A DNA stretch of 64,000 bases from Escherichia coli (GCF_017348835.2 NZ_CP071375.1); one strand, 5' to 3'. Shown: positions 6,125 to 39,590, counted from the first letter of the stretch. The notes: generated from the letters alone by a model not told the origin. A program made the numbers and translations.

Positions 6125-6400
6125 TCATGCCGGATGCGGCGTGAACGCCTTATCCGGCCTTCGAATGGAACGAGAATCTGTAGGCCTGATAAGCGTAGCG
6201 CATCAGGCATTTGTCACCATTGCCGGATGCGGCGTGAACGCCTTATCCGGCCTACAAGTGGCGCAAGAATTTGTAGGCCTGATAAGCGTAGCGCATCAGG
6301 CATTTGTCACCATTGCCGGATGCGGCGTGAACGCCTTATCCGGCCTACGAGTGGCACGAGAATTTGTAGGCCTGATAAGCGTAGCGCATCAGGCAGTCTG
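6125..6400. repeat. BIME/REP array, about three units of GCCGGATGCGGCGTGAACGCCTTATCCGGCCTAC alternating with GTAGGCCTGATAAGCGTAGCGCATCAGGC
   Basis: Directly visible near-identical tandem palindromic units; produces spurious ORFs with repeated MRRERLIRP peptides. Confidence 0.9.
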
Positions 6401-7404: not shown

Positions 7405-8787
7405 ATGAAAGAAAACAATAGCCGCCGTGAGTTTTTGAGCCAGAGCGGTAAGATGGTCACCGCCGCCGCGCTGTTTGGTACCTCTGTGCCGCTCGCCCAT
7501 GCGGCGGTCTCTGGCACCACAAACTGCGAAGCGAACAACACCATGAAAATCACTGACCCGCATTACTATCTCGACAACGTGCTGCTGGAAACTGGATTTG
7601 ACTACGAAAATGGCGTGGCGGTGCAGACCCGCACGGCGCGCCAGACCGTGGAGATTCAGGACGGCAAAATTGTCACCCTGCGCGAGAACAAGCAGCATCC
7701 GGACGCCACGCTGCCGCACTATGACGCTGGCGGTAAGCTGATGCTGCCCACCACCCGCGACATGCATATTCATCTCGACAAAACCTTTTACGGCGGGCCG
7801 TGGCGCTCGCTCAATCGTCCGGCAGGCACCACCATCCAGGACATGATTAAGCTTGAGCAGAAAATGCTGCCGGAGTTGCAACCATACACTCAGGAACGGG
7901 CGGAGAAACTGATCGATTTTTTGCAGTCGAAAGGTACTACCATTGCCCGCAGCCACTGCAATATCGAACCAGTTTCCGGCCTGAAAAATCTGCAAAATTT
8001 GCAGGCGGTGCTGGCGCGACGTCAGGCGGGCTTTGAGTGTGAAATCGTCGCCTTCCCGCAGCACGGTTTGCTGCTGTCGAAATCGGAACCCTTAATGCGT
8101 GAAGCAATGCAGGCGGGTGCGCATTACGTCGGCGGGCTGGACCCGACCAGTGTCGATGGCGCGATGGAAAAATCCCTCGATACCATGTTCCAGATTGCGC
8201 TGGACTACGACAAAGGCGTCGATATTCACCTGCACGAAACCACTCCGTCGGGCGTGGCAGCCATCAATTATATGGTTGAAACGGTAGAGAAAACGCCGCA
8301 ACTGAAAGGTAAGCTGACCATCAGCCACGCCTTTGCGCTGGCTACGCTCAACGAACAACAGGTAGATGAACTGGCGAATCGGATGGCGGCGCAGCAAATT
8401 TCTATCGCCTCGACGGTGCCGATTGGCACGCTGCATATGCCGCTCAAACAGTTGCACGACAAAGGCGTAAAAGTGATGACTGGCACTGACAGCGTTATCG
8501 ACCACTGGTCGCCTTATGGTCTGGGCGACATGCTGGAAAAAGCCAATCTCTACGCGCAGCTCTATATTCGTCCTAACGAACAGAACCTCTCCCGTTCGCT
8601 GTTTCTAGCCACTGGCGATGTATTGCCGCTGAATGAAAAAGGCGAGCGTGTATGGCCAAAAGCGCAGGATGACGCCAGCTTTGTGCTGGTGGACGCCTCC
8701 TGTTCCGCCGAGGCGGTGGCGCGTATCTCGCCGAGAACCGCAACGTTCCATAAAGGGCAACTGGTGTGGGGGAGTGTGGCAGGTTGA
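7405..8787 (+). CDS. yahJ: amidohydrolase-superfamily deaminase/hydrolase (460 aa), Tat/Sec-type signal-like N-terminus
   Basis: RREFL...AAALFG N-terminus, metal-binding HIHLD motif; length 460 aa. Confidence 0.8.
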   Translation: MKENNSRREFLSQSGKMVTAAALFGTSVPLAHAAVSGTTNCEANNTMKITDPHYYLDNVLLETGFDYENGVAVQTRTARQTVEIQDGKIVTLRENKQHPDATLPHYDAGGKLMLPTTRDMHIHLDKTFYGGPWRSLNRPAGTTIQDMIKLEQKMLPELQPYTQERAEKLIDFLQSKGTTIARSHCNIEPVSGLKNLQNLQAVLARRQAGFECEIVAFPQHGLLLSKSEPLMREAMQAGAHYVGGLDPTSVDGAMEKSLDTMFQIALDYDKGVDIHLHETTPSGVAAINYMVETVEKTPQLKGKLTISHAFALATLNEQQVDELANRMAAQQISIASTVPIGTLHMPLKQLHDKGVKVMTGTDSVIDHWSPYGLGDMLEKANLYAQLYIRPNEQNLSRSLFLATGDVLPLNEKGERVWPKAQDDASFVLVDASCSAEAVARISPRTATFHKGQLVWGSVAG

Positions 8788-9085
8788 TGCGCATTTGAAA
8801 CGCCTGCAACGGTGAATAGTAAGAGATTTAAGCCCCAGGGAGTGGGGCGGGAATGGTTTGCTAATGAATGATCCTGAACTTTATAATCTCCCGGCATAAT
8901 TTCCAGGGGATTATTTGAGAGAAATACACAAAAGTGAGTTTTAACAAAGGTATTTATCAGGCCATAAATGTGACCTGCTTCGGATAAAAAAGATTCAGTA
9001 TCGAAAAACCAATGATACTCTTGCTGATGGTTACCAACAGTAATTAAGATGTGATTTGTTTTTCCGTAATCGCAAAAATATTGCC

Positions 9086-9496
9086 ATGACCATAAAAGAA
9101 AAATTCTCACAAAAATATCCCCATGCTTCCTTTTGTACTTTTGGCGATTCAGCCGCGTTGGCCGATCACCTCGCAACGTTGATTGCGACTGGTGTTAAAA
9201 CAGCTTCCTGTGGTTCGCTGGCGGGATGTATTGAAGACAACGCATTTCCGATGATTGGTGAGTATAAGATTGTAGAAAATAGCCGTGGTGAGCCTGTATG
9301 TGTTATCAGAGTGATTGGCCTGCATTTACTGCGCTTTTCTGATGTCACCGCAGAGCTTGCCCGTAAGGAAGGTGAAGGTGACCTCAGTCTTGAATATTGG
9401 CGTAATGAACACCGTCGTTTTTTCCAGGCAGAAGGAAGCTATTCACCAGAAATGGACGTTATCTTTGAAGAATATGCCCTTATTGACGTTGTATAG
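9086..9496 (+). CDS. ASCH-domain (PUA-like) protein, about 136 aa
   Basis: ORF 9056..9496; the MTIKEKF start at 9086 is more plausible; ATLIATGVKTASCG resembles the ASCH GxKT core. Confidence 0.55.
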   Translation: MTIKEKFSQKYPHASFCTFGDSAALADHLATLIATGVKTASCGSLAGCIEDNAFPMIGEYKIVENSRGEPVCVIRVIGLHLLRFSDVTAELARKEGEGDLSLEYWRNEHRRFFQAEGSYSPEMDVIFEEYALIDVV

Positions 9497-9569
9497 ATAA
9501 CTATTTATCTACACGAAATAAGCTCACAAACATAAAATATCGCTAATTTTGTTTATTTTGCTGTTTTTT

Positions 9570-9588
9570 ACGTGATGAATGTCACACT
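9570..9588. promoter_or_regulatory. CRP-like half-site pair GTGA-N6-TCACA upstream of the ABC transporter
   Basis: Sequence acGTGAtgaatgTCACAct read directly; about 160 bp upstream of the binding-protein start codon. Confidence 0.35.
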
Positions 9589-9746
9589 TATTATTGCTGC
9601 CCGTTTTGTCCATATTTATAACCATATTTTTAATAGCTGCCTGAAATAGAGCTGTTTATTCTGCATAAAAATATTCGAAAATTCTTATTCTCTCCAGCGC
9701 GCTAATTTGGGCGAACACTTCCTGACTACCCTGCAATGAGGCTGAA

Positions 9747-10733
9747 ATGATGAATAAACGTTTTGTTATCAATATGGTGTCTTCGCTGTTATTAGGCGCT
9801 GCGCTAATTTCTGCGCCGCTCCAGGCAGCGGAAAAAGTCGTGGTGAATATTTCTAAAGTCGATGGTATGCCGTGGTTTAATCGCATGGGCGAAGGTGTGG
9901 TTGAGGCGGGTAAAGCCTTTGGTGTTAATGCCTCACAGGTGGGGCCTTCAAGTACTGATGCTCCGCAACAGGTTAAAATTATTGAGGATTTAATCGCCCG
10001 TAAGGTTAATGCAATTACTATCGTGCCAAACGATGCCAACGTGCTGGAACCGGTATTCAAAAAAGCGCGAGATGCCGGAATTGTGGTTCTGACCAACGAA
10101 TCCCCCGGTCAGCCAAGTGCTAACTGGGATATCGAAATCATTGATAACGAAAAATTTGCCGCTGAATATGTTGAGCATATGGCGAAACGCATGGGTGGCA
10201 AGGGCGGCTATGTGATTTACGTGGGTAGTTTGACCGTGCCGCAGCATAACTTATGGGCTGACTTGCTGGTGAAATACCAGAAAGAGCATTACCCGGATAT
10301 GCATGAAGTTACCCGCCGCATGCCGGTTGCCGAGAGTGTGGATGACTCACGTCGTACCACACTGGACCTGATGAAAACCTATCCTGACTTGAAAGCGGTT
10401 GTCTCCTTTGGTTCAAACGGTCCGATTGGCGCGGGACGTGCGGTGAAAGAGAAACGGGCGAAAAATAAAGTCGCAGTCTATGGCATGATGATCCCTTCAC
10501 AGGCGGCATCACTGATTAAAAGTGGTGATATCACCGAAGGGATTACTTACGATCCGGCCTCTGCAGGTTACGCACTCGCAGCCGTCGCCAGCACATTGCT
10601 GAAGGGTGAAGAGATCAAGCCTGGATTAGAAATGCAGAATCTGGGTAAGGCCGACGTAGATATGGATAAGCGAATTATCCGTTTCCATAAGGTATTACTG
10701 GTCAACAAAGACAATATCGACTCACTTTATTAA
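9747..10733 (+). CDS. periplasmic sugar-binding protein, LsrB/RbsB family (328 aa) with signal peptide
   Basis: Signal peptide MMNKRFVINMVSSLLLGAALISAPLQAAEK; C-terminal NKDNID motif shared with LsrB-type binding proteins. Confidence 0.85.
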   Translation: MMNKRFVINMVSSLLLGAALISAPLQAAEKVVVNISKVDGMPWFNRMGEGVVEAGKAFGVNASQVGPSSTDAPQQVKIIEDLIARKVNAITIVPNDANVLEPVFKKARDAGIVVLTNESPGQPSANWDIEIIDNEKFAAEYVEHMAKRMGGKGGYVIYVGSLTVPQHNLWADLLVKYQKEHYPDMHEVTRRMPVAESVDDSRRTTLDLMKTYPDLKAVVSFGSNGPIGAGRAVKEKRAKNKVAVYGMMIPSQAASLIKSGDITEGITYDPASAGYALAAVASTLLKGEEIKPGLEMQNLGKADVDMDKRIIRFHKVLLVNKDNIDSLY

Positions 10734-10781
10734 TCCATTTCTTCGGGGCGAAAGCCCCGATTCTTATTGCCAGGGGATGTT

Positions 10782-12266
10782 ATGGAAACCTTCCTTTCCC
10801 TTCGTCATATCAACAAAACGTTTCATGCCACGCGAGCGCTGCGCGATGTTTCTCTCGACTTTATGTCGGGTGAAGTGCACTGCCTTGCCGGGCAAAACGG
10901 CTGTGGTAAATCGACGTTGATTAAAATTATGTCCGGTGTTTATCGCCCGGATGAGGGAGCGGAAATTACGCTTGGTGGGAAAAACTGGTCAAAGCTGACA
11001 CCCGCCGCTTCGGTGGCGCAGGGGATTCAGGTGATTTATCAGGACCTCTCTTTATTTCCTAACCTGAGTGTCTGGGAGAATATCGCCGTGAATCACTATC
11101 ACCACGGTCTGTTTGTTAACCGCCGTCGTCTGCGTGAGGTGGCGCAGGCGGCAATGACCAGTATTAACGTCACATTGCCACTGGATACACTCGTTTCTGA
11201 GCTTTCAATTGCCCGCTGTCAGCTGGTGGCTATTTGCCGTGCACTGGCGCAGGACGCACGGTTGATCGTGATGGATGAACCAACCGCTTCGCTGACCCAT
11301 CAGGAAGTGCAAGGGTTATTACAGGTGGTGCATCAATTGCGTGAACGCGGGATCTGCGTGGTCTTCGTCAGTCATCGTCTGGAAGAAGTGATGGAAGTTT
11401 CCGAGCGTATTTCAGTGCTGAAAGATGGTGAGCTGGTCGGGACTTTTCCGGCTGCAGAGATGACCACAAAACAACTCGGTTTCCTGATGACCGGCCAGGA
11501 GTTTGAATATCAGGTGCGAGAGTTGTGGCAGGGAAAATCCAGCACCCCGGTGCTGGAGGTGCGTAATTTAAGTCGTCATGGGGAATATCTAAATATTAAC
11601 TTGCGGGTGGAAGCGGGCGAAGTGGTATCGATTGTTGGCCTGCTTGGTGCGGGGCGCACGGAATTATGTCTGAGTCTGTTTGGTATGACCCGACCGGATG
11701 CTGGCGAGATCCTCATCAACGGCCAGCCGGTTACACTGCATAGTAACCAGGACGCCATCCGCCACGGTATTGGTTATGTTTCGGAAGATCGCATGTCGCG
11801 CGGTTTGGTGATGGCGCAATCTATTGAAGACAACATCATTAGCACTGTTTTTCACAAGGTAAAAGATCGCTTCGGCTTTCTGAGTGAAACTAAAGTGCGT
11901 GACCTGGTGGACAGGCTAATCAAGGCATTGACCATCAAAGTCTCTGATCCTCATCTCCCGGTGAATACGCTTTCTGGTGGTAACGCGCAGCGAGTATCGA
12001 TCGCCAAATGGCTGGCGATTGGGCCACGACTGTTGATTCTCGATAGCCCGACAGTCGGTGTTGATATCGCCAACAAAGCAGGAATATACGGCATTATCAG
12101 CGATCTGGCGGCTCATGGCATTGCGGTATTGATGATCTGCGATGAAATTGAAGAAGCGTGGTATCAAAGCCACCGGATTTTGGTAATGCAAAAAGGTCAG
12201 ATCACCCATAGCTTCCTGCCTGACAGCAGTTCTCAGGCCAGGATTGCGGAGGTGGTAAATGGCTGA
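10782..12266 (+). CDS. sugar ABC transporter ATP-binding protein, duplicated ABC domains (about 494 aa)
   Basis: Two Walker A motifs (GQNGCGKST and GLLGAGRTE) and an ABC signature (LSGGNAQR); RbsA/LsrA-like architecture. Confidence 0.85.
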   Translation: METFLSLRHINKTFHATRALRDVSLDFMSGEVHCLAGQNGCGKSTLIKIMSGVYRPDEGAEITLGGKNWSKLTPAASVAQGIQVIYQDLSLFPNLSVWENIAVNHYHHGLFVNRRRLREVAQAAMTSINVTLPLDTLVSELSIARCQLVAICRALAQDARLIVMDEPTASLTHQEVQGLLQVVHQLRERGICVVFVSHRLEEVMEVSERISVLKDGELVGTFPAAEMTTKQLGFLMTGQEFEYQVRELWQGKSSTPVLEVRNLSRHGEYLNINLRVEAGEVVSIVGLLGAGRTELCLSLFGMTRPDAGEILINGQPVTLHSNQDAIRHGIGYVSEDRMSRGLVMAQSIEDNIISTVFHKVKDRFGFLSETKVRDLVDRLIKALTIKVSDPHLPVNTLSGGNAQRVSIAKWLAIGPRLLILDSPTVGVDIANKAGIYGIISDLAAHGIAVLMICDEIEEAWYQSHRILVMQKGQITHSFLPDSSSQARIAEVVNG

Positions 12267-13230
12267 ACTGAAAAAACGCCATGAATTCTGGCTGGCATTA
12301 CTGATTGTGGTGCTGTTTGTTGGCCTTGCCTGGCGCAGCGACGAGTTTCTGACATTCGGTAATTTGTACGATCTCGCCAATAACTATGCCATGTTGACTA
12401 TTCTCGCCTGTGGTTTGTTTGTGGTGTTGATTTCCGGTGGAATTGATATTTCGTTTCCAGCTATGACCATCATTGCGCAATACGGCATGGTGCTGTTGCT
12501 GCAAAAAATTGGTGGCAACTTCGCTGTCGCGTTTGCACTGGCGGGCTGCATCGGCATTTTACTTGGCTTAATTAACGCCTTACTGGTTAATCGCCTACGG
12601 GTGCCTTCTATCATCATCACTATCTCGACGCTGAATATTTTCTATGGCCTGCTGTTATGGTTGAGTAAAGGTGTGTGGCTGTACGACTTTCCGCCGTGGT
12701 TTGAGCAGGGGGTTATGTTGTTCAAGTACACCGATGCTGATGGCTATGACTATGGCCTTGGTCTGCCGCTGATCGCCATGATTACGGTGGTGCTGCTAAC
12801 AGCGTTTATCATGAATTTCACCAGTGTAGGGCGCAAAATTTATGCCCTTGGCGGGAACCGCGAATCAGCCAGTCGCATCGGCTTTAGCGTGCTGAAACTG
12901 CAACTTTTCGTCTATGGCTATATGGGATTGATGTCTGGCGCTGCGGGTGTAGTGCAGTCGTGGACGGTGATGACTGTCGCCCCCGATTCTCTTCTGGGTT
13001 ATGAGCTGACAGTACTGGCTGCGGTGGTGCTTGGCGGCACTAGTTTGCTCGGCGGGCACGGCACGTTAACCGGTACTTTGCTCGGCGTGGTGTTGTTGGC
13101 AGTGATGCAAAACGGGCTAAATTTATTGGGAGTCTCGTCTTACTGGCAAACATTGATCACCGGCATCATCATCGTTGCCAGCATTAGTGCCACGGCGTGG
13201 AGTCAGCATCAGAACCGGAGTCTGCTATGA
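12259..13230 (+). CDS. ABC transporter permease, RbsC-like (323 aa)
   Basis: Multi-TM hydrophobic ORF overlapping the ATPase stop by 8 bp. Confidence 0.8.
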   Translation: MAELKKRHEFWLALLIVVLFVGLAWRSDEFLTFGNLYDLANNYAMLTILACGLFVVLISGGIDISFPAMTIIAQYGMVLLLQKIGGNFAVAFALAGCIGILLGLINALLVNRLRVPSIIITISTLNIFYGLLLWLSKGVWLYDFPPWFEQGVMLFKYTDADGYDYGLGLPLIAMITVVLLTAFIMNFTSVGRKIYALGGNRESASRIGFSVLKLQLFVYGYMGLMSGAAGVVQSWTVMTVAPDSLLGYELTVLAAVVLGGTSLLGGHGTLTGTLLGVVLLAVMQNGLNLLGVSSYWQTLITGIIIVASISATAWSQHQNRSLL

Positions 13231-14183
13231 AAAAATCGTGGTGTAATAACGTTGAGTTTTACTTGATCGGCCTGCTGGTGCTAACTGTTGCCGCGTTCAG
13301 CATTACTATGCCGGAGATTTTCTGGTCGATAAGTAATTTCCAGTCCGTCGCTTCGCAAATGCCCGTGCTGGGCATTCTGGCGTTGGCTATGGCGGTGACC
13401 ATGCTTTGCGGTGGCATTAACTTGTCAATTATAGCCACTGCTAACGCCTGTTCACTGGTGATGGCGTGGGTGGCGACTCAGTATCCACCGGGTATTGCTA
13501 CGGTTGTCGCTACGTTACTGGCGGGCGCTGGCGCGGCGGTGATAATCGGTTTATGTAACGGCGTATTGATTGCTGGTATTCGAGTGTCGCCAATTCTTGC
13601 AACGCTTGGGATGATGACGTTGCTCAAAGGGATAAATATTCTGGTGACAGGTGGTAGCGCCATTGCCAATTATCCCTCATGGGTGCTGTGGTTGAATCAT
13701 GCGCAATGGTTCGGTATTCCGCTACCGATGTGGTTGTTTGCCGCAGTGGCACTGGGGCTGTGGATATTGCTGGAAAAAACGCCGCTCGGTAAAGCCATTT
13801 ACCTGATTGGGTCTAACGAACGAGCAACACTTTACTCCGGCATTAACACTCGTCGGGTGCTGATTTGGGTTTATGTCATTTCCGCCTTGCTTTGTGCGGT
13901 AGCGGCATTTTTGATGATGTCGAAACTCAACTCGGCTAAGGCCTCTTATGGCGAATCGTACTTGCTGGTGTCAATCCTCGCGGCAGTACTCGGCGGGGTT
14001 AATCCGGACGGCGGCAGCGGGCGGATAATTGGTATGGTGCTGGCGCTGTTTCTTCTGCAAATTATTGAAAGCGGCTTCAATATTCTCGGTATAAGCCCCT
14101 ACCTGACGATGGCCTTATGGGGAACGTTGCTGCTCTGTTTCATTCAGGCTCGCGGCATGTTGGGGCTGGATCGGGTGGTTTAA
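13227..14183 (+). CDS. ABC transporter permease, second subunit (about 318 aa)
   Basis: Multi-TM ORF; the MKKSW start forms an ATGA overlap with the preceding permease stop. Confidence 0.8.
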   Translation: MKKSWCNNVEFYLIGLLVLTVAAFSITMPEIFWSISNFQSVASQMPVLGILALAMAVTMLCGGINLSIIATANACSLVMAWVATQYPPGIATVVATLLAGAGAAVIIGLCNGVLIAGIRVSPILATLGMMTLLKGINILVTGGSAIANYPSWVLWLNHAQWFGIPLPMWLFAAVALGLWILLEKTPLGKAIYLIGSNERATLYSGINTRRVLIWVYVISALLCAVAAFLMMSKLNSAKASYGESYLLVSILAAVLGGVNPDGGSGRIIGMVLALFLLQIIESGFNILGISPYLTMALWGTLLLCFIQARGMLGLDRVV

Positions 14184-14269
14184 ATATTGGCTATATTCAA
14201 TGGACGCGTTTTGCCGCGATGACATATCAGGCGTCGCCAAATACACATAGCTAATCAGGAGTAAACACA

Positions 14270-15319
14270 ATGAAGATCAAAGCTGTTGGTGCATATTCCG
14301 CTAAACAACCACTTGAACCGATGGATATCACCCGGCGTGAACCGGGACCGAATGATGTCAAAATCGAAATCGCTTACTGTGGCGTCTGCCATTCCGATCT
14401 CCACCAGGTCCGTTCCGAGTGGGCGGGGACGGTTTACCCCTGCGTGCCGGGTCATGAAATTGTGGGGCGTGTGGTAGCCGTTGGTGATCAGGTAGAAAAA
14501 CATGCGCCGGGCGATCTGGTCGGTGTCGGCTGCATTGTCGACAGTTGTAAACATTGCGAAGAGTGTGAAGACGGGCTGGAAAACTACTGTGATCACATGA
14601 CCGGCACATATAACTCGCCGACGCCGGACGAACCGGGCCATACTCTGGGCGGCTACTCACAACAGATCGTCGTTCATGAGCGATATGTTCTGCGTATTCG
14701 TCACCCGCAAGAGCAGCTGGCGGCGGTGGCTCCTTTGTTGTGTGCAGGGATCACCACGTACTCGCCGCTACGTCACTGGCAGGCCGGGCCGGGTAAAAAA
14801 GTGGGCGTGGTCGGCATCGGCGGTCTGGGACATATGGGGATTAAGCTGGCCCACGCGATGGGGGCACATGTGGTGGCATTTACCACTTCTGAGGCAAAAC
14901 GCGAAGCGGCAAAAGCCCTGGGGGCCGATGAAGTTGTTAACTCACGCAATGCCGATGAGATGGCGGCTCATGTGAAGAGTTTCGATTTCATTTTGAATAC
15001 AGTAGCTGCGCCACATAATCTCGACGATTTTACCACCTTGCTGAAGCGTGATGGCACCATGACGCTGGTTGGTGTGCCTGCGACACCGCATAAATCGCCG
15101 GAAGTTTTCAACCTGATCATGAAACGCCGTGCGATAGCCGGTTCTATGATTGGCGGCATTCCAGAAACTCAGGAGATGCTCGATTTTTGCGCCGAACATG
15201 GCATCGTGGCTGATATAGAGATGATTCGGGCCGATCAAATTAATGAAGCCTATGAGCGAATGCTGCGCGGTGATGTGAAATATCGTTTTGTTATCGATAA
15301 TCGCACACTAACAGACTGA
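14270..15319 (+). CDS. yahK: Zn-dependent NADPH aldehyde reductase / alcohol dehydrogenase (349 aa)
   Basis: GHE motif (CVPGHEIVGRV), structural Zn Cys cluster (CKHCEECEDG), GxGxxG (GIGGLGHMG); 349 aa. Confidence 0.9.
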   Translation: MKIKAVGAYSAKQPLEPMDITRREPGPNDVKIEIAYCGVCHSDLHQVRSEWAGTVYPCVPGHEIVGRVVAVGDQVEKHAPGDLVGVGCIVDSCKHCEECEDGLENYCDHMTGTYNSPTPDEPGHTLGGYSQQIVVHERYVLRIRHPQEQLAAVAPLLCAGITTYSPLRHWQAGPGKKVGVVGIGGLGHMGIKLAHAMGAHVVAFTTSEAKREAAKALGADEVVNSRNADEMAAHVKSFDFILNTVAAPHNLDDFTTLLKRDGTMTLVGVPATPHKSPEVFNLIMKRRAIAGSMIGGIPETQEMLDFCAEHGIVADIEMIRADQINEAYERMLRGDVKYRFVIDNRTLTD

Positions 15320-15358
15320 AAAAATTAATAAATACGCTGTGGTTTAACATATTAACTT

Positions 15359-15392
15359 CGCTCTCCACTTAACTTTTTAGTTAAGGAGAGCG
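15359..15392 (+). terminator. stem-loop CGCTCTCCACTTAACT-TTTT-AGTTAAGGAGAGCG downstream of yahK
   Basis: Near-perfect 15-bp inverted repeat read directly, 40 nt after the yahK stop; not followed by a clean U-tract. Confidence 0.35.
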
Positions 15393-15561
15393 AAATAATA
15401 TCAAAGTAGCAGTAAAACCTATAACGTAAATTCAAATTGTTAAATTAACTCCCTCCAGTACACAATACTTCACACGTTAGTTATGAGCGATTTCTGATAG
15501 TGCCTGGTTTAATCAGAGCTTTATTATCTGCGACGTTTATTTTTATTTAAGAGAGATCGCG

Positions 15562-16377
15562 ATGATATCATTAAAAGCTCCGCACAATAATTTGATGCCA
15601 TATACGCAACAAAGCATACTTAATACGGTTAAAAACAATCAGTTACCAGAGGATATCAAAAGCTCCCTGGTTTCCTGTGTCGATATATTCAAGGTTTTGA
15701 TTAAACAATATTATGATTATCCTTATGATTGTCGTGATGATTTAGTCGATGACGACAAACTCATTCATCTCATGGCTGCCGTACGAGACTGTGAGTGGTC
15801 AGACGATAACGCACTCACTATAAATGTGCAGTTTAATGATTTCCCTGGATTTTATGACTGGATGGATTACCCTGATCACCCGGTTAAGTTTGTTTTTCGC
15901 ATACTTGAAAATCAAAAAGGGACAGTTTGGGTATATGACCAGGATGATGCGTTTCTTGATATTAAAGCAAACGTGCAGGCTGGACGCTTTACCGGGCTTA
16001 AGAAATTAGTGCAGTTTATCGATTCAGTGCGAACAGATTGCAAATGTATTCTTCTTGAACACCATATGCCTTTGCTGAGAATTTTCCCTAAAGGGAAAGA
16101 GTGTATGCATGTGGAAAAATGGCTTCGCGAAATGTCGTCTATTCCGGAGACAGACGCGCCCATTAAGCAGGCGCTTGCGCATGGATTATTATTACACTTA
16201 AAAAATATCTACCCTGTTTTTCCTGAATCACTGGTGATGTTATTGCTCTCTGTTCTGGACGTAAAAACATACAGAGATGACGCACGATTAAATGAATGGA
16301 TATCTAATAGAGTGCAGGAATTAGGTGACAGATATTATCCTGTAAATAAGCACGTTAAAATCCGCTACACTCTTTAG
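15562..16377 (+). CDS. yahL: hypothetical protein (271 aa)
   Basis: 271 aa ORF in the expected position between yahK and yahM. Confidence 0.7.
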   Translation: MISLKAPHNNLMPYTQQSILNTVKNNQLPEDIKSSLVSCVDIFKVLIKQYYDYPYDCRDDLVDDDKLIHLMAAVRDCEWSDDNALTINVQFNDFPGFYDWMDYPDHPVKFVFRILENQKGTVWVYDQDDAFLDIKANVQAGRFTGLKKLVQFIDSVRTDCKCILLEHHMPLLRIFPKGKECMHVEKWLREMSSIPETDAPIKQALAHGLLLHLKNIYPVFPESLVMLLLSVLDVKTYRDDARLNEWISNRVQELGDRYYPVNKHVKIRYTL

Positions 16378-16603
16378 TTCAGAAAGGGTTCCACCTGCAA
16401 GTTGTTATTCCACCAGAGAGTGAATGGCAATGCAGGTAATCATTTCATCTGTATATCCGTATGCCAAATGGCATTCCACCGCCTTTTTCGCCGATATTTT
16501 GTTGTGATCGGCGACGCTTCGCTTAAAAAAGCACCAGCAGTGGTTTTGCAGCTATGCGGTGTATAAAAAATGATCTCATGCAGATGTTTTGTGAATGTGT
16601 GGG

Positions 16604-16632
16604 TTGACATTCATATGAAAAAAATCATAATT
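16604..16632 (+). promoter_or_regulatory. near-consensus sigma70 promoter (TTGACA, 16-17 bp spacer, CATAAT/ATAATT)
   Basis: gggTTGACAttcatatgaaaaaaatCATAATtcc read directly; about 160 nt upstream of the yahM start. Confidence 0.35.
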
Positions 16633-16789
16633 CCATCATGTTTGTGTGGGGTCTTTTCTGTATCTTACGCATCGCTCTCAAGCCTGACAGAAAATATGCT
16701 GTAAGGCTCATATCAAAAACCGCCATTAGCTCATCAGGAAGAGCAGACGACAACCAGGATTGTTGTATGGTACGGGGTTCGAGGCCTCG

Positions 16790-38600: not shown

Positions 38601-38670
38601 ATTCACCACCCTGAATTGACTCTCTTCCGGGCGCTATCATGCCATACCGCGAAAGGTTTTGCGCCATTCG
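38601..38670 (-). promoter_or_regulatory. lacI promoter (-35 GCGCAA, -10 CATGAT), embedded in the 3' end of the upstream regulator gene
   Basis: Reverse complement reads GAATGGCGCAAAACCTTTCGCGGTATGGCATGATAGCGCCCGGAAGAGAGTCAATTCAGGGTGGTGAAT, the classical lacI promoter sequence. Confidence 0.85.
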
Positions 38671-39590
38671 GCGGGGCTGACGCCGAAGTGAGATTTAAAA
38701 TGCTGACGCCAGGTCACAGGTGAGAGAAAACCCACCTCAGCCGCTATCCGCTCCACGGGCAACTGACTGGATCCCAACAGTTCCTGGCTACGGCGTAAGC
38801 GTTCAGTAATGAGCCATTCGGCGATACTCGAACCGGTCGCTTTCATAAAATGGCGAGTTAATGTGCGGCGACTCATCATTACTCGCTGCGCCAGCGAGTC
38901 GAGATCATGCTGTTGCGCAATGTTTTGCCGCAGGTAATCCAGCAGGAGATTAATGCGTTCATCAAGGGTATTTTTCGGCACTGGTTGCTCAATAAACTGC
39001 GCCTGACCGCCAGTGCGATATGGCGGTACGACCATCCGTCGGGCAATATGGTTAGCATAGTCGCTGCCAAAATGTTGCCGAACAATATACAAACAGCAAT
39101 CCAGCGCCGCGGCAGTACCGGCAGAGGTAATAATGCCGTCATCGTCTACGTACAACGCGTTAATATCCAGATGTGTTTGTGGAAAACGTGCCTGAAATTC
39201 ACGCTCGAACTCCCAGTGCGTGGCGGCACGCTTATTTTTCAGTAAACCTGCATAGCCGAGCACAAACGTGCCCAGGCAAAGCCCGACAATCTGTGCGCCG
39301 TTATCCCGTGCGGTCGTTAAGGCTTCCAGCAGTTTTTGTGGCGGTTTTTGTGTAATGGTTCCCCAGTAAGGAATTATCACAATATCTGCCTGGATGACTG
39401 CGGTATAGTCATGGGTGGCGGTTACGGAAAACCCATCGGCAGAGTCCACGTTTCCCGGCTTTTCAGCGCAGATAATTACGTGAAAGTGTTTTTTCTCCGC
39501 CATTTTTTCGCTAAATACGATAAACGGTACGGAAAGGTGAAAAGGACTAAAACCGGCAACGGCGATAATGGCAACAGTTAGCGGGCGCAT
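38637..39590 (-). CDS. DJ-1/PfpI-domain plus AraC-type HTH transcriptional regulator (GlxA/FtrA-like), 317 aa
   Basis: N-terminal DJ-1-like domain with the conserved Cys nucleophile elbow (QIVGLCLGTFVL); C-terminal AraC HTH (RRTLTRHF, SPAEWRKTF). Confidence 0.8.
   Translation of the reverse strand: MRPLTVAIIAVAGFSPFHLSVPFIVFSEKMAEKKHFHVIICAEKPGNVDSADGFSVTATHDYTAVIQADIVIIPYWGTITQKPPQKLLEALTTARDNGAQIVGLCLGTFVLGYAGLLKNKRAATHWEFEREFQARFPQTHLDINALYVDDDGIITSAGTAAALDCCLYIVRQHFGSDYANHIARRMVVPPYRTGGQAQFIEQPVPKNTLDERINLLLDYLRQNIAQQHDLDSLAQRVMMSRRTLTRHFMKATGSSIAEWLITERLRRSQELLGSSQLPVERIAAEVGFLSPVTWRQHFKSHFGVSPAEWRKTFRGMA

Follow-up and report, generated by a model that had tools for sequence, protein, structure and literature searches.

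The question raised by this 64,000-nucleotide stretch of Escherichia coli DNA (NZ_CP071375.1; all of it is hereafter called the window) is what the genes between yahJ and yahK, at positions 8,788 to 14,269, encode and how they came to be there. The first-pass annotation, made from the sequence alone, had described a novel LsrB-like sugar ATP-binding cassette (ABC) transporter with an adjacent ASCH-domain gene, inserted at this site. We are confident of a different account, in which positions 9747-14183 are aauABCD, the Aau importer of O-island 17, the ASCH gene is a separate neighbour, and K-12-type genomes lost the block through two deletions. The Aau transporter is already known from published work and is therefore no discovery here. 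A scan for open reading frames (ORFs) found five, all on the + strand, between yahJ (7405-8787) and yahK (14270-15319), with gene starts taken from the RefSeq/PGAP annotation of an O157:H7 genome whose block at the same site is 99.5% identical to that of the window:

9086-9496, + strand: ASCH-domain gene, 136 residues, YhfF/EF3133-type ('ASCH domain-containing protein' in PGAP)
9747-10733, + strand: aauA, periplasmic D-ribulose-binding protein, named from its near-identity to PDB 9i1m_A (PGAP start 9750)
10782-12266, + strand: aauB, fused two-domain ABC ATPase, 494 residues, reading frame intact in the window strain
12259-13230, + strand: aauC, permease 1, 323 residues
13227-14183, + strand: aauD, permease 2, 318 residues, with its final ~72-93 nt still present in K-12

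The gene content described by the first-pass annotation is thus all there, including the Sec-type signal peptide of the binding protein (ending LQA|AE) and the overlapping junctions, which are 8 nt for aauB/aauC and 4 nt (ATGA) for aauC/aauD. Together these genes make up a complete CUT2-type (TC 3.A.1.2) accessory sugar ABC importer. In NCBIfam, the ATPase matches AraG, XylG, RbsA, and LsrA and the permeases match AraH, RbsC, LsrC, and LsrD, while the PDB relatives of AauA are CUT2 binding proteins throughout. No NCBIfam equivalog was reached at cut-off by any of the five proteins, so none receives an automatic functional name; the best matches of AauB (AraG, YtfR, XylG, and LsrA) were all under cut-off.

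The transporter can nevertheless be named, because it shares its locus, gene order, flanks, and pocket with a published system, as well as 327 of 328 binding-protein residues. That system, Z0415-Z0419 of O-island 17 in strain EDL933, was named Aau for accessory L-arabinose uptake by Cottam et al. (Nat Commun 2024, PMC11127945). In that study the locus raised the fitness of enterohaemorrhagic E. coli (EHEC) in the streptomycin-treated mouse gut, was enriched in phylogroups B1 and E, and partly rescued an araE mutant, and a 300-bp promoter fragment responded to L-arabinose alone and required AraC. A second study (Nat Commun 2025, PMC12307932) reported that AauA binds D-ribulose with a dissociation constant (Kd) of 1.98 uM and L-arabinose ~300-fold more weakly (598 uM), solved its structure with alpha-D-ribulose bound (PDB 9I1M), and described phosphorylation of the imported D-ribulose by AraB and its entry into the pentose phosphate pathway. 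The ligand contacts listed there are Lys37, Trp43, Glu118, His167, Glu196, and Ser223, and AauA of the window carries all six (K37, W43, E118, H167, E196, and S223). Its single difference from 9i1m_A, D200 for the V200 of the crystallised protein, falls outside these contacts. Judging from the ligand data for this near-identical protein, the window Aau would import D-ribulose for phosphorylation by AraB. The first-pass annotation had itself stated that a binding site identical to that of a characterised protein would remove the novelty, and AauA and 9I1M are such a pair. Its description of an accessory sugar importer holds, the published ligand being a plain ketopentose, but with two papers and a ligand-bound structure in print, the function of Aau is not worth pursuing as a discovery.

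Not every carrier of the locus appears to have a working importer. In O157:H7 strain F7508, aauB is a pseudogene with an internal stop (locus L001, 5083-6567), while it is intact in the window strain, and a premature stop in aauB has also been reported for TUV93-0 (PMC11127945). Many of the O157 isolates that carry the locus may thus lack Aau function. Separately, the Klebsiella structure PDB 3D02 bears the title 'putative LacI-type transcriptional regulator', but its protein is a close orthologue of AauA (628 bits, with near-identity across residues 27-328) and is thus a mislabelled D-ribulose-type binding protein.

How the block came to be present in some genomes and absent from others is best read from the genomes that lack it. 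The full 5.6-kb block is found in 2211 of 5426 complete E. coli genomes (41%), including O157:H7, O111, and avian pathogenic O2:K1:H5 strains. K-12 is not a carrier, and the four transporter genes are not at this locus there, which was one of the checks that the first-pass annotation had set itself. The short, gene-free gap that it gave for K-12 was right in size (376 nt) and wrong in content, as the gap contains remnants of the block, within which RefSeq annotates a 75-nt pseudogene fragment 'missing N-terminus'. Four pieces can be aligned: the first corresponds to window 8788-8848; the second is 72 nt made up of the last ASCH codons and stop (9447-9518; 92% identity); the third, of ~60 nt, aligns with the upstream portion of the aau promoter and contains a degraded cyclic AMP receptor protein (CRP) site (about 9547-9590); and the fourth comprises the last 72-93 nt of aauD and the spacer to yahK (14112-14269; 99%). 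Overall, the left remnant is ~87% identical to the window and the right remnant 99.4%. Between these pieces lie the two segments that K-12 is missing (neither is assigned a strand):

8849-9446: 'deletion 2', covering the ASCH promoter region and ~88% of the ASCH gene, missing in K-12 and intact in Escherichia sp. E2593
9593-14110: 'deletion 1', taking in the AraC site and promoter, aauABC, and the greater part of aauD; absent from both K-12 and Escherichia sp. E2593 (breakpoints +/- ~20 nt)

A B2-type genome has the same gap structure as K-12, and the span is the same (~495 nt) in each of the 16 sampled non-carriers that cover the gap. Two divergent lineages retain complementary parts of the block. 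Escherichia sp. E2593 (L085), which is ~10% divergent, has yahJ, an intact ASCH gene, a promoter remnant, an aauD remnant, and yahK, and its right breakpoint is the same as that of K-12. The second, strain SCPM-O-B-8794 (L031, 8300-10000), is labelled E. coli and is only ~90% identical to it, and is probably a mislabelled sister Escherichia species. Here the order is pdeL, a yahB sliver, a 3' ASCH remnant starting at the equivalent of window 9397 (a different breakpoint), intact aauABCD, yahK, and yahL, with the whole yahB-to-yahJ cluster missing. Another candidate for a divergent ASCH-aau carrier (L088, 76% ASCH identity) was set aside because it is an E. coli assembly with very many frameshifts (96.8% identical at the DNA level).

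Because K-12 retains remnants of the block, and because E2593 and L031 show complementary partial losses, we interpret the difference as deletion rather than insertion, and the simplest reading of the sequences is that yahJ-ASCH-aauABCD-yahK is the older arrangement at the site. In this scenario, a deletion of about 9593-14110 would have taken out the operator and promoter along with most of the aau operon, and a second deletion, of 8849-9446, would have removed most of the ASCH gene; the decayed scar is what the two left behind. Import of the K-12 scar from an E2593-like lineage was considered and rejected, as the scar is nearer to the intact E. coli allele (92.5%) than to that of E2593 (86.2%). 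For this reason, and because the left remnant has decayed, the loss in K-12 appears to be old. Some points weigh against this account. The breakpoint shared by K-12 and E2593 may reflect one event or parallel ones, and it could be a recurrent deletion at microhomology. The depth of the ancestral state rests on two sister Escherichia lineages, neither named to species, and horizontal arrival before the Escherichia radiation is possible.

The alternative that survives best, although we consider it unlikely, is that the block is a recent, horizontally acquired island in an empty yahJ-yahK site of EHEC-type lineages. The distribution is patchy at 41% of genomes, the ASCH gene and the spacer that follows it, which holds the promoter, have a low G+C content (39-42%), no named Escherichia species of the genome collection gave a match, L031 aside, and both Aau papers call the locus horizontally acquired (PMC11127945, PMC12307932). 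Yet the supposedly empty site holds remnants of three parts of the block, sister lineages at ~10% divergence have either the block or complementary parts of it in this position, and there are no mobility genes, tRNA genes, or flanking repeats. The G+C content of the transporter genes, at ~50%, is also ordinary for E. coli. Loss of an ancestral locus by deletion therefore corrects the direction of change both for the first-pass annotation, which had written of an insertion, and for the 'horizontally acquired' wording as far as the comparison with K-12 is concerned.

The published AraC dependence of the aau promoter raises the further question of how this control is exerted. Upstream of aauA we found a set of elements whose layout parallels that of K-12 araBAD:

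9571-9586, + strand: predicted CRP site, cGTGAtgaatgTCACA, from motif scan and conservation
9598-9614, + strand: predicted AraC I1-like half-site, TGCCCGTTTTGTCCATA, placed as in araBAD
9619-9635, + strand: predicted AraC I2-like half-site, TAACCATATTTTTAATA, a direct repeat with the I1-like site in a 21-bp register
9657-9662, + strand: predicted -10 hexamer, TATTCT, 21 nt past the I2-like site

The order at aau is thus a CRP-like 16-mer, 11 nt, the I1-like site, 4 nt, the I2-like site, 21 nt, and TATTCT, and that of araBAD, read from the K-12 sequence, is the CRP 16-mer, 13 nt, I1, 4 nt, I2, 20 nt, and TACTGT. The CRP core motif occurs twice in the window against 0.64 expected. A scan of the window with the single AraC half-site consensus found 28 matches against 39.5 expected, which is no enrichment, and scanning the block for generic sigma-70 promoters and terminators gave no more sites than shuffled sequence did. 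Because a lone half-site match is no better than chance, our operator call rests on the composite layout and its conservation across genera. The composite GTGA-N6-TCAC-N23-TCCATA has a single occurrence in every one of 11 loci that were fetched, each time at the corresponding position upstream of aauA, and the sequence around it has diverged among them. These loci are L001, L004, L088, and the sister-lineage L031 (E. coli or E. coli-like), together with one from Klebsiella pneumoniae, two from Franconibacter, three from Mangrovibacter, and one from Symbiopectobacterium. Among the 12 close relatives aligned, 9 (the window and 8 of the 11 loci) share a fixed 27-nt offset between the CRP site and I1, and three Symbiopectobacterium loci show one mismatch. 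Relatives also have better I1 sites (in Klebsiella, TAGTATTATTATCCATA), their I2 position has a TAGC A-box, and TTTAYTCT around the -10 hexamer is kept in Klebsiella and Franconibacter.

These elements suggest that AraC and CRP would control aau directly, through the CRP site, the I1-I2 repeat, and a -10 hexamer laid out as at araBAD. Such an operator fits the published AraC dependence of the 300-bp fragment. Term searches of the main text of the 2024 paper (PMC11127945) found no description of an operator, and the prediction is a testable addition to the story of EHEC gut colonisation. Three observations count against it, namely the chance-level performance of the single half-site already mentioned, the poor A-box of the E. 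coli I1-like site (TGCC for TAGC), and the CRP-to-I1 offset of 27 nt at aau against 29 nt at araBAD. The apparent retention of the CRP-I1-I2 layout in at least five genera (Klebsiella, Franconibacter, Mangrovibacter, Symbiopectobacterium, and, with the sister lineage, Escherichia) argues that Aau has long belonged to the arabinose regulon and was not recruited recently. With regard to AraC itself, the araC gene of E. coli K-12 GM4792 (L091, 5303-6181) has an internal stop and is annotated as a pseudogene, and the window encodes an AraC-family paralogue at 38661-38966 (- strand; 28% identity to AraC over 103 residues) that has no apparent tie to aau.

To place Aau among its relatives, we used a homologue scan covering one genome per species, which gave 80 loci with AauA relatives at 58-99% identity. 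The aau homologue adjoins araC and araBAD in Providencia, Limnobaculum, Budvicia, and Leminorella. In Pasteurellaceae, it directly follows a gene for an AraC-family regulator whose identity to AraC is 38-47%, and in Chelonobacter and Testudinibacter araB follows the transporter. A group at ~60% identity has an FGGY kinase gene directly downstream, which is the published Rbl type. All six pocket residues are kept in 80 of 80 homologues, in every locus type, so that the Aau and Rbl transporters look like one orthologous family with different partners, and the tie to the arabinose regulon appears to be old rather than an EHEC-specific recruitment. Term searches of the main text of the 2025 paper (PMC12307932) found no discussion of ara-cluster synteny in these genera. 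More broadly, and only tentatively, we propose that Aau and Rbl are one old family whose ancestral home is the AraC/CRP arabinose regulon of Enterobacterales and Pasteurellales, with O-island 17 being ancestral and deleted in K-12-type lineages. If this is true, EHEC did not 'hijack' AraC and Aau and Rbl are not convergent inventions; instead, some lineages would have kept an existing ara-regulon transporter, others would have lost it, and a third group would have paired it anew with a dedicated kinase. The shared pocket and ancestry of the Aau-type and Rbl-type transporters would in this way refine the account of EHEC gut colonisation.

Such a close association with arabinose genes brings back the original proposal for Aau, according to which it is mainly a high-capacity L-arabinose scavenger with D-ribulose as a side activity. 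Induction by L-arabinose only, through AraC, and the partial rescue of an araE mutant (PMC11127945) agree with this, as do the homologues within araC-araBAD clusters of several families and the araBAD-like layout of the promoter. We still judge it very unlikely, given the Kd values of 598 uM for L-arabinose and 1.98 uM for D-ribulose, the absence of a growth defect on L-arabinose, and the ability of Aau to restore growth of a Citrobacter rodentium rblABCD mutant on D-ribulose (PMC12307932). The pocket is also the same as that of kinase-linked Rbl-type loci dedicated to D-ribulose.

The ASCH gene led the first-pass annotation to suggest, as speculation, that the pairing hints at uptake of a modified sugar or nucleoside. 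Its product matches Pfam PF04266 (E 3.5e-22, residues 27-133), its nearest solved relatives are EF3133 (1T62; E 4.6e-19) and 3S9X, and several sources label its homologues 'uncharacterized protein YhfF'. YqfB was absent from its PDB matches at E <= 1, and it had no PADLOC or PHROGs match, which gives no sign of a defence or phage role. YqfB-type enzymes have the octapeptide G-x-K-x-x-[T/S]-x-R, and YqfB with Arg26Ala is inactive (PMC6972931). In the window protein the octapeptide is GVKTASCG, with the Lys and a Ser at the nucleophile position present and the terminal Arg replaced by Gly, so the protein lacks the full signature of a YqfB-type N4-acylcytidine amidohydrolase. A 2026 preprint on 19 ASCH proteins as tRNA N4-acetylcytidine (ac4C) deacetylases explicitly leaves out this class of terminal-substituted octapeptides.

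We consider it highly improbable that the ASCH gene works with the transporter as a single unit that would import and process a modified sugar or nucleoside. The two are always together in E. coli (the ASCH-specific segment is in 2213 genomes, the full block in 2211), and ASCH proteins of other subfamilies deacylate N4-acetylcytidine, but a single shared deletion allele accounts for this pattern, the ligand is a ketopentose that carries no modification, and the terminal Arg essential in YqfB is missing. By tblastn, none of 79 non-Escherichia aau loci had an ASCH homologue adjacent to the transporter; the sole other match among them, in one Serratia, is 10 kb off on the opposite strand. In Yersinia canariae, Kosakonia cowanii, and Mangrovibacter yixingensis, the ASCH homologue stands alone in an unrelated gene neighbourhood, and in M. 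yixingensis ASCH and aau are both present on separate contigs. ASCH is present without aau in E2593, and in L031 aau is present with ASCH reduced to a remnant. Between the two genes in the window lies a 250-nt spacer with aau's own promoter, and the published 300-bp promoter fragment is downstream of the ASCH gene (PMC11127945). Term searches of the main text of both Aau papers found no mention of ASCH (PMC11127945, PMC12307932). What speaks for a connection, and so against our separation of the two, is the RNA-seq of the 2024 study, in which Z0414, a 'hypothetical protein', rose 3.7-fold with L-arabinose, compared with 26-fold for Z0415 and 43-fold for Z0417 (PMC11127945). By its number, just before Z0415, Z0414 is presumably the ASCH ORF, and a loose regulatory link may exist; the ASCH gene lies upstream of the aau promoter, and no mechanism for such an induction is evident. 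From the lack of adjacency in 79 loci, the stand-alone homologues, and aau's own downstream promoter fragment, we take ASCH to be an independent, apparently monocistronic YhfF-type gene, and we conclude that its pairing with aau is an Escherichia-specific neighbourhood accident that gives no clue to the ligand, contrary to what had been suggested. More tentatively still, the YhfF-type neighbour, with its presumed mild induction by arabinose, may have acquired a lineage-specific role.

The weakest alternative is that the importer is of the LsrB type and takes up autoinducer-2 (AI-2), as its RefSeq/PGAP product name ('autoinducer 2 ABC transporter substrate-binding protein') implies; LsrB structures are detectable as relatives of AauA (~80-88 bits) and the two share a C-terminal N-K-x-N-I motif (NKDNID in AauA, NKENIGKYDF at the end of LsrB), yet this has next to no probability, since AauA has only 28-29% identity to E. 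coli K-12 LsrB (as a proxy for the Salmonella protein), scores 111 bits against the NCBIfam LsrB cut-off of 384 (NF011937), and holds D-ribulose in its published crystal, and lsrK, lsrR, lsrF, and lsrG have no tblastn match in the window. The standard for a functional LsrB, quoted in PMC3386761, is >63% identity to Salmonella LsrB together with K35, D116, D166, Q167, P220, and A222; AauA keeps K35 alone, with E, Q, H, F, and S at the other five. Beside AauA homologues there were likewise no lsr-type partners, distant FGGY kinases excepted. Of the LsrB-like features noted in the first-pass annotation, the C-terminal motif stands as family-level similarity only and membership of the LsrB family in a functional sense does not, while its remark that the missing lsrK/lsrR/lsrFG partners argue against AI-2 as ligand was correct. 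A rhamnose-binding protein was ruled out as well, AauA scoring 137 bits against the NCBIfam RhaS cut-off of 342 (TIGR02637). The autoinducer-2 name clashes with the structure and with the LsrB signature, and it could mislead surveys of quorum sensing.

One further element lies within the operon itself:

10743-10760, + strand: GC-rich stem-loop TCGGGGC-GAAA-GCCCCGA in the aauA/aauB gap, from a terminator-like scan

A GAAA-tetraloop hairpin after the binding-protein gene is a typical feature where ABC operons produce their binding protein in excess, and this stem-loop may act as an intra-operon attenuator or stabiliser. Elsewhere in the window, the yahG/yahI gap holds three tandem copies of a 93-nt unit (6128-6395; 94% matches) with the appearance of repetitive extragenic palindromic or bacterial interspersed mosaic elements (REP/BIME); the RefSeq 'protein YahH' of O157 spans this array and may be a spurious ORF. 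Beyond yahK, the yahL region (15250-16750) has a low G+C content (34-42%), YahL has no NCBIfam match, and YahL of L031 is 79% identical to that of the window, compared with 97% for its neighbour YahK.

Compared with known systems, the locus resembles LsrB/LsrACD in its CUT2 ABC architecture, binding-protein fold family, and C-terminal N-K-x-N-I motif, and differs in sequence (28% identity), in five of the six AI-2 contacts, and in having no lsrK, lsrR, lsrF, or lsrG. The ASCH protein shares with YqfB-type enzymes and EF3133 the ASCH/PUA-like domain and the octapeptide Lys and Ser/Thr positions, but its octapeptide ends in Gly where that of YqfB ends in Arg. The araBAD promoter matches that of aau in the order and near-identical spacing of the CRP site, the two 17-bp AraC half-sites in their 21-bp register, and the -10 hexamer, with an offset of 29 rather than 27 nt between the CRP site and I1 and without the weak A-boxes of the E. 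coli aau half-sites. The Rbl system of Citrobacter rodentium (RblABCD-RblK-RblI) has a homologous transporter at ~60% identity, and the Rbl-type loci that we recovered have the same six pocket residues; these loci have their own FGGY D-ribulokinase downstream and respond to D-ribulose, whereas Aau has neither kinase nor regulator of its own and relies on AraC and AraB. Closest of all is Aau of EDL933, which is the same as the window system in locus, gene order, flanks, and ligand pocket, and from which the window differs in that its ATPase gene is intact, while O157 strains of the EDL933/TUV93-0 type carry a premature stop.

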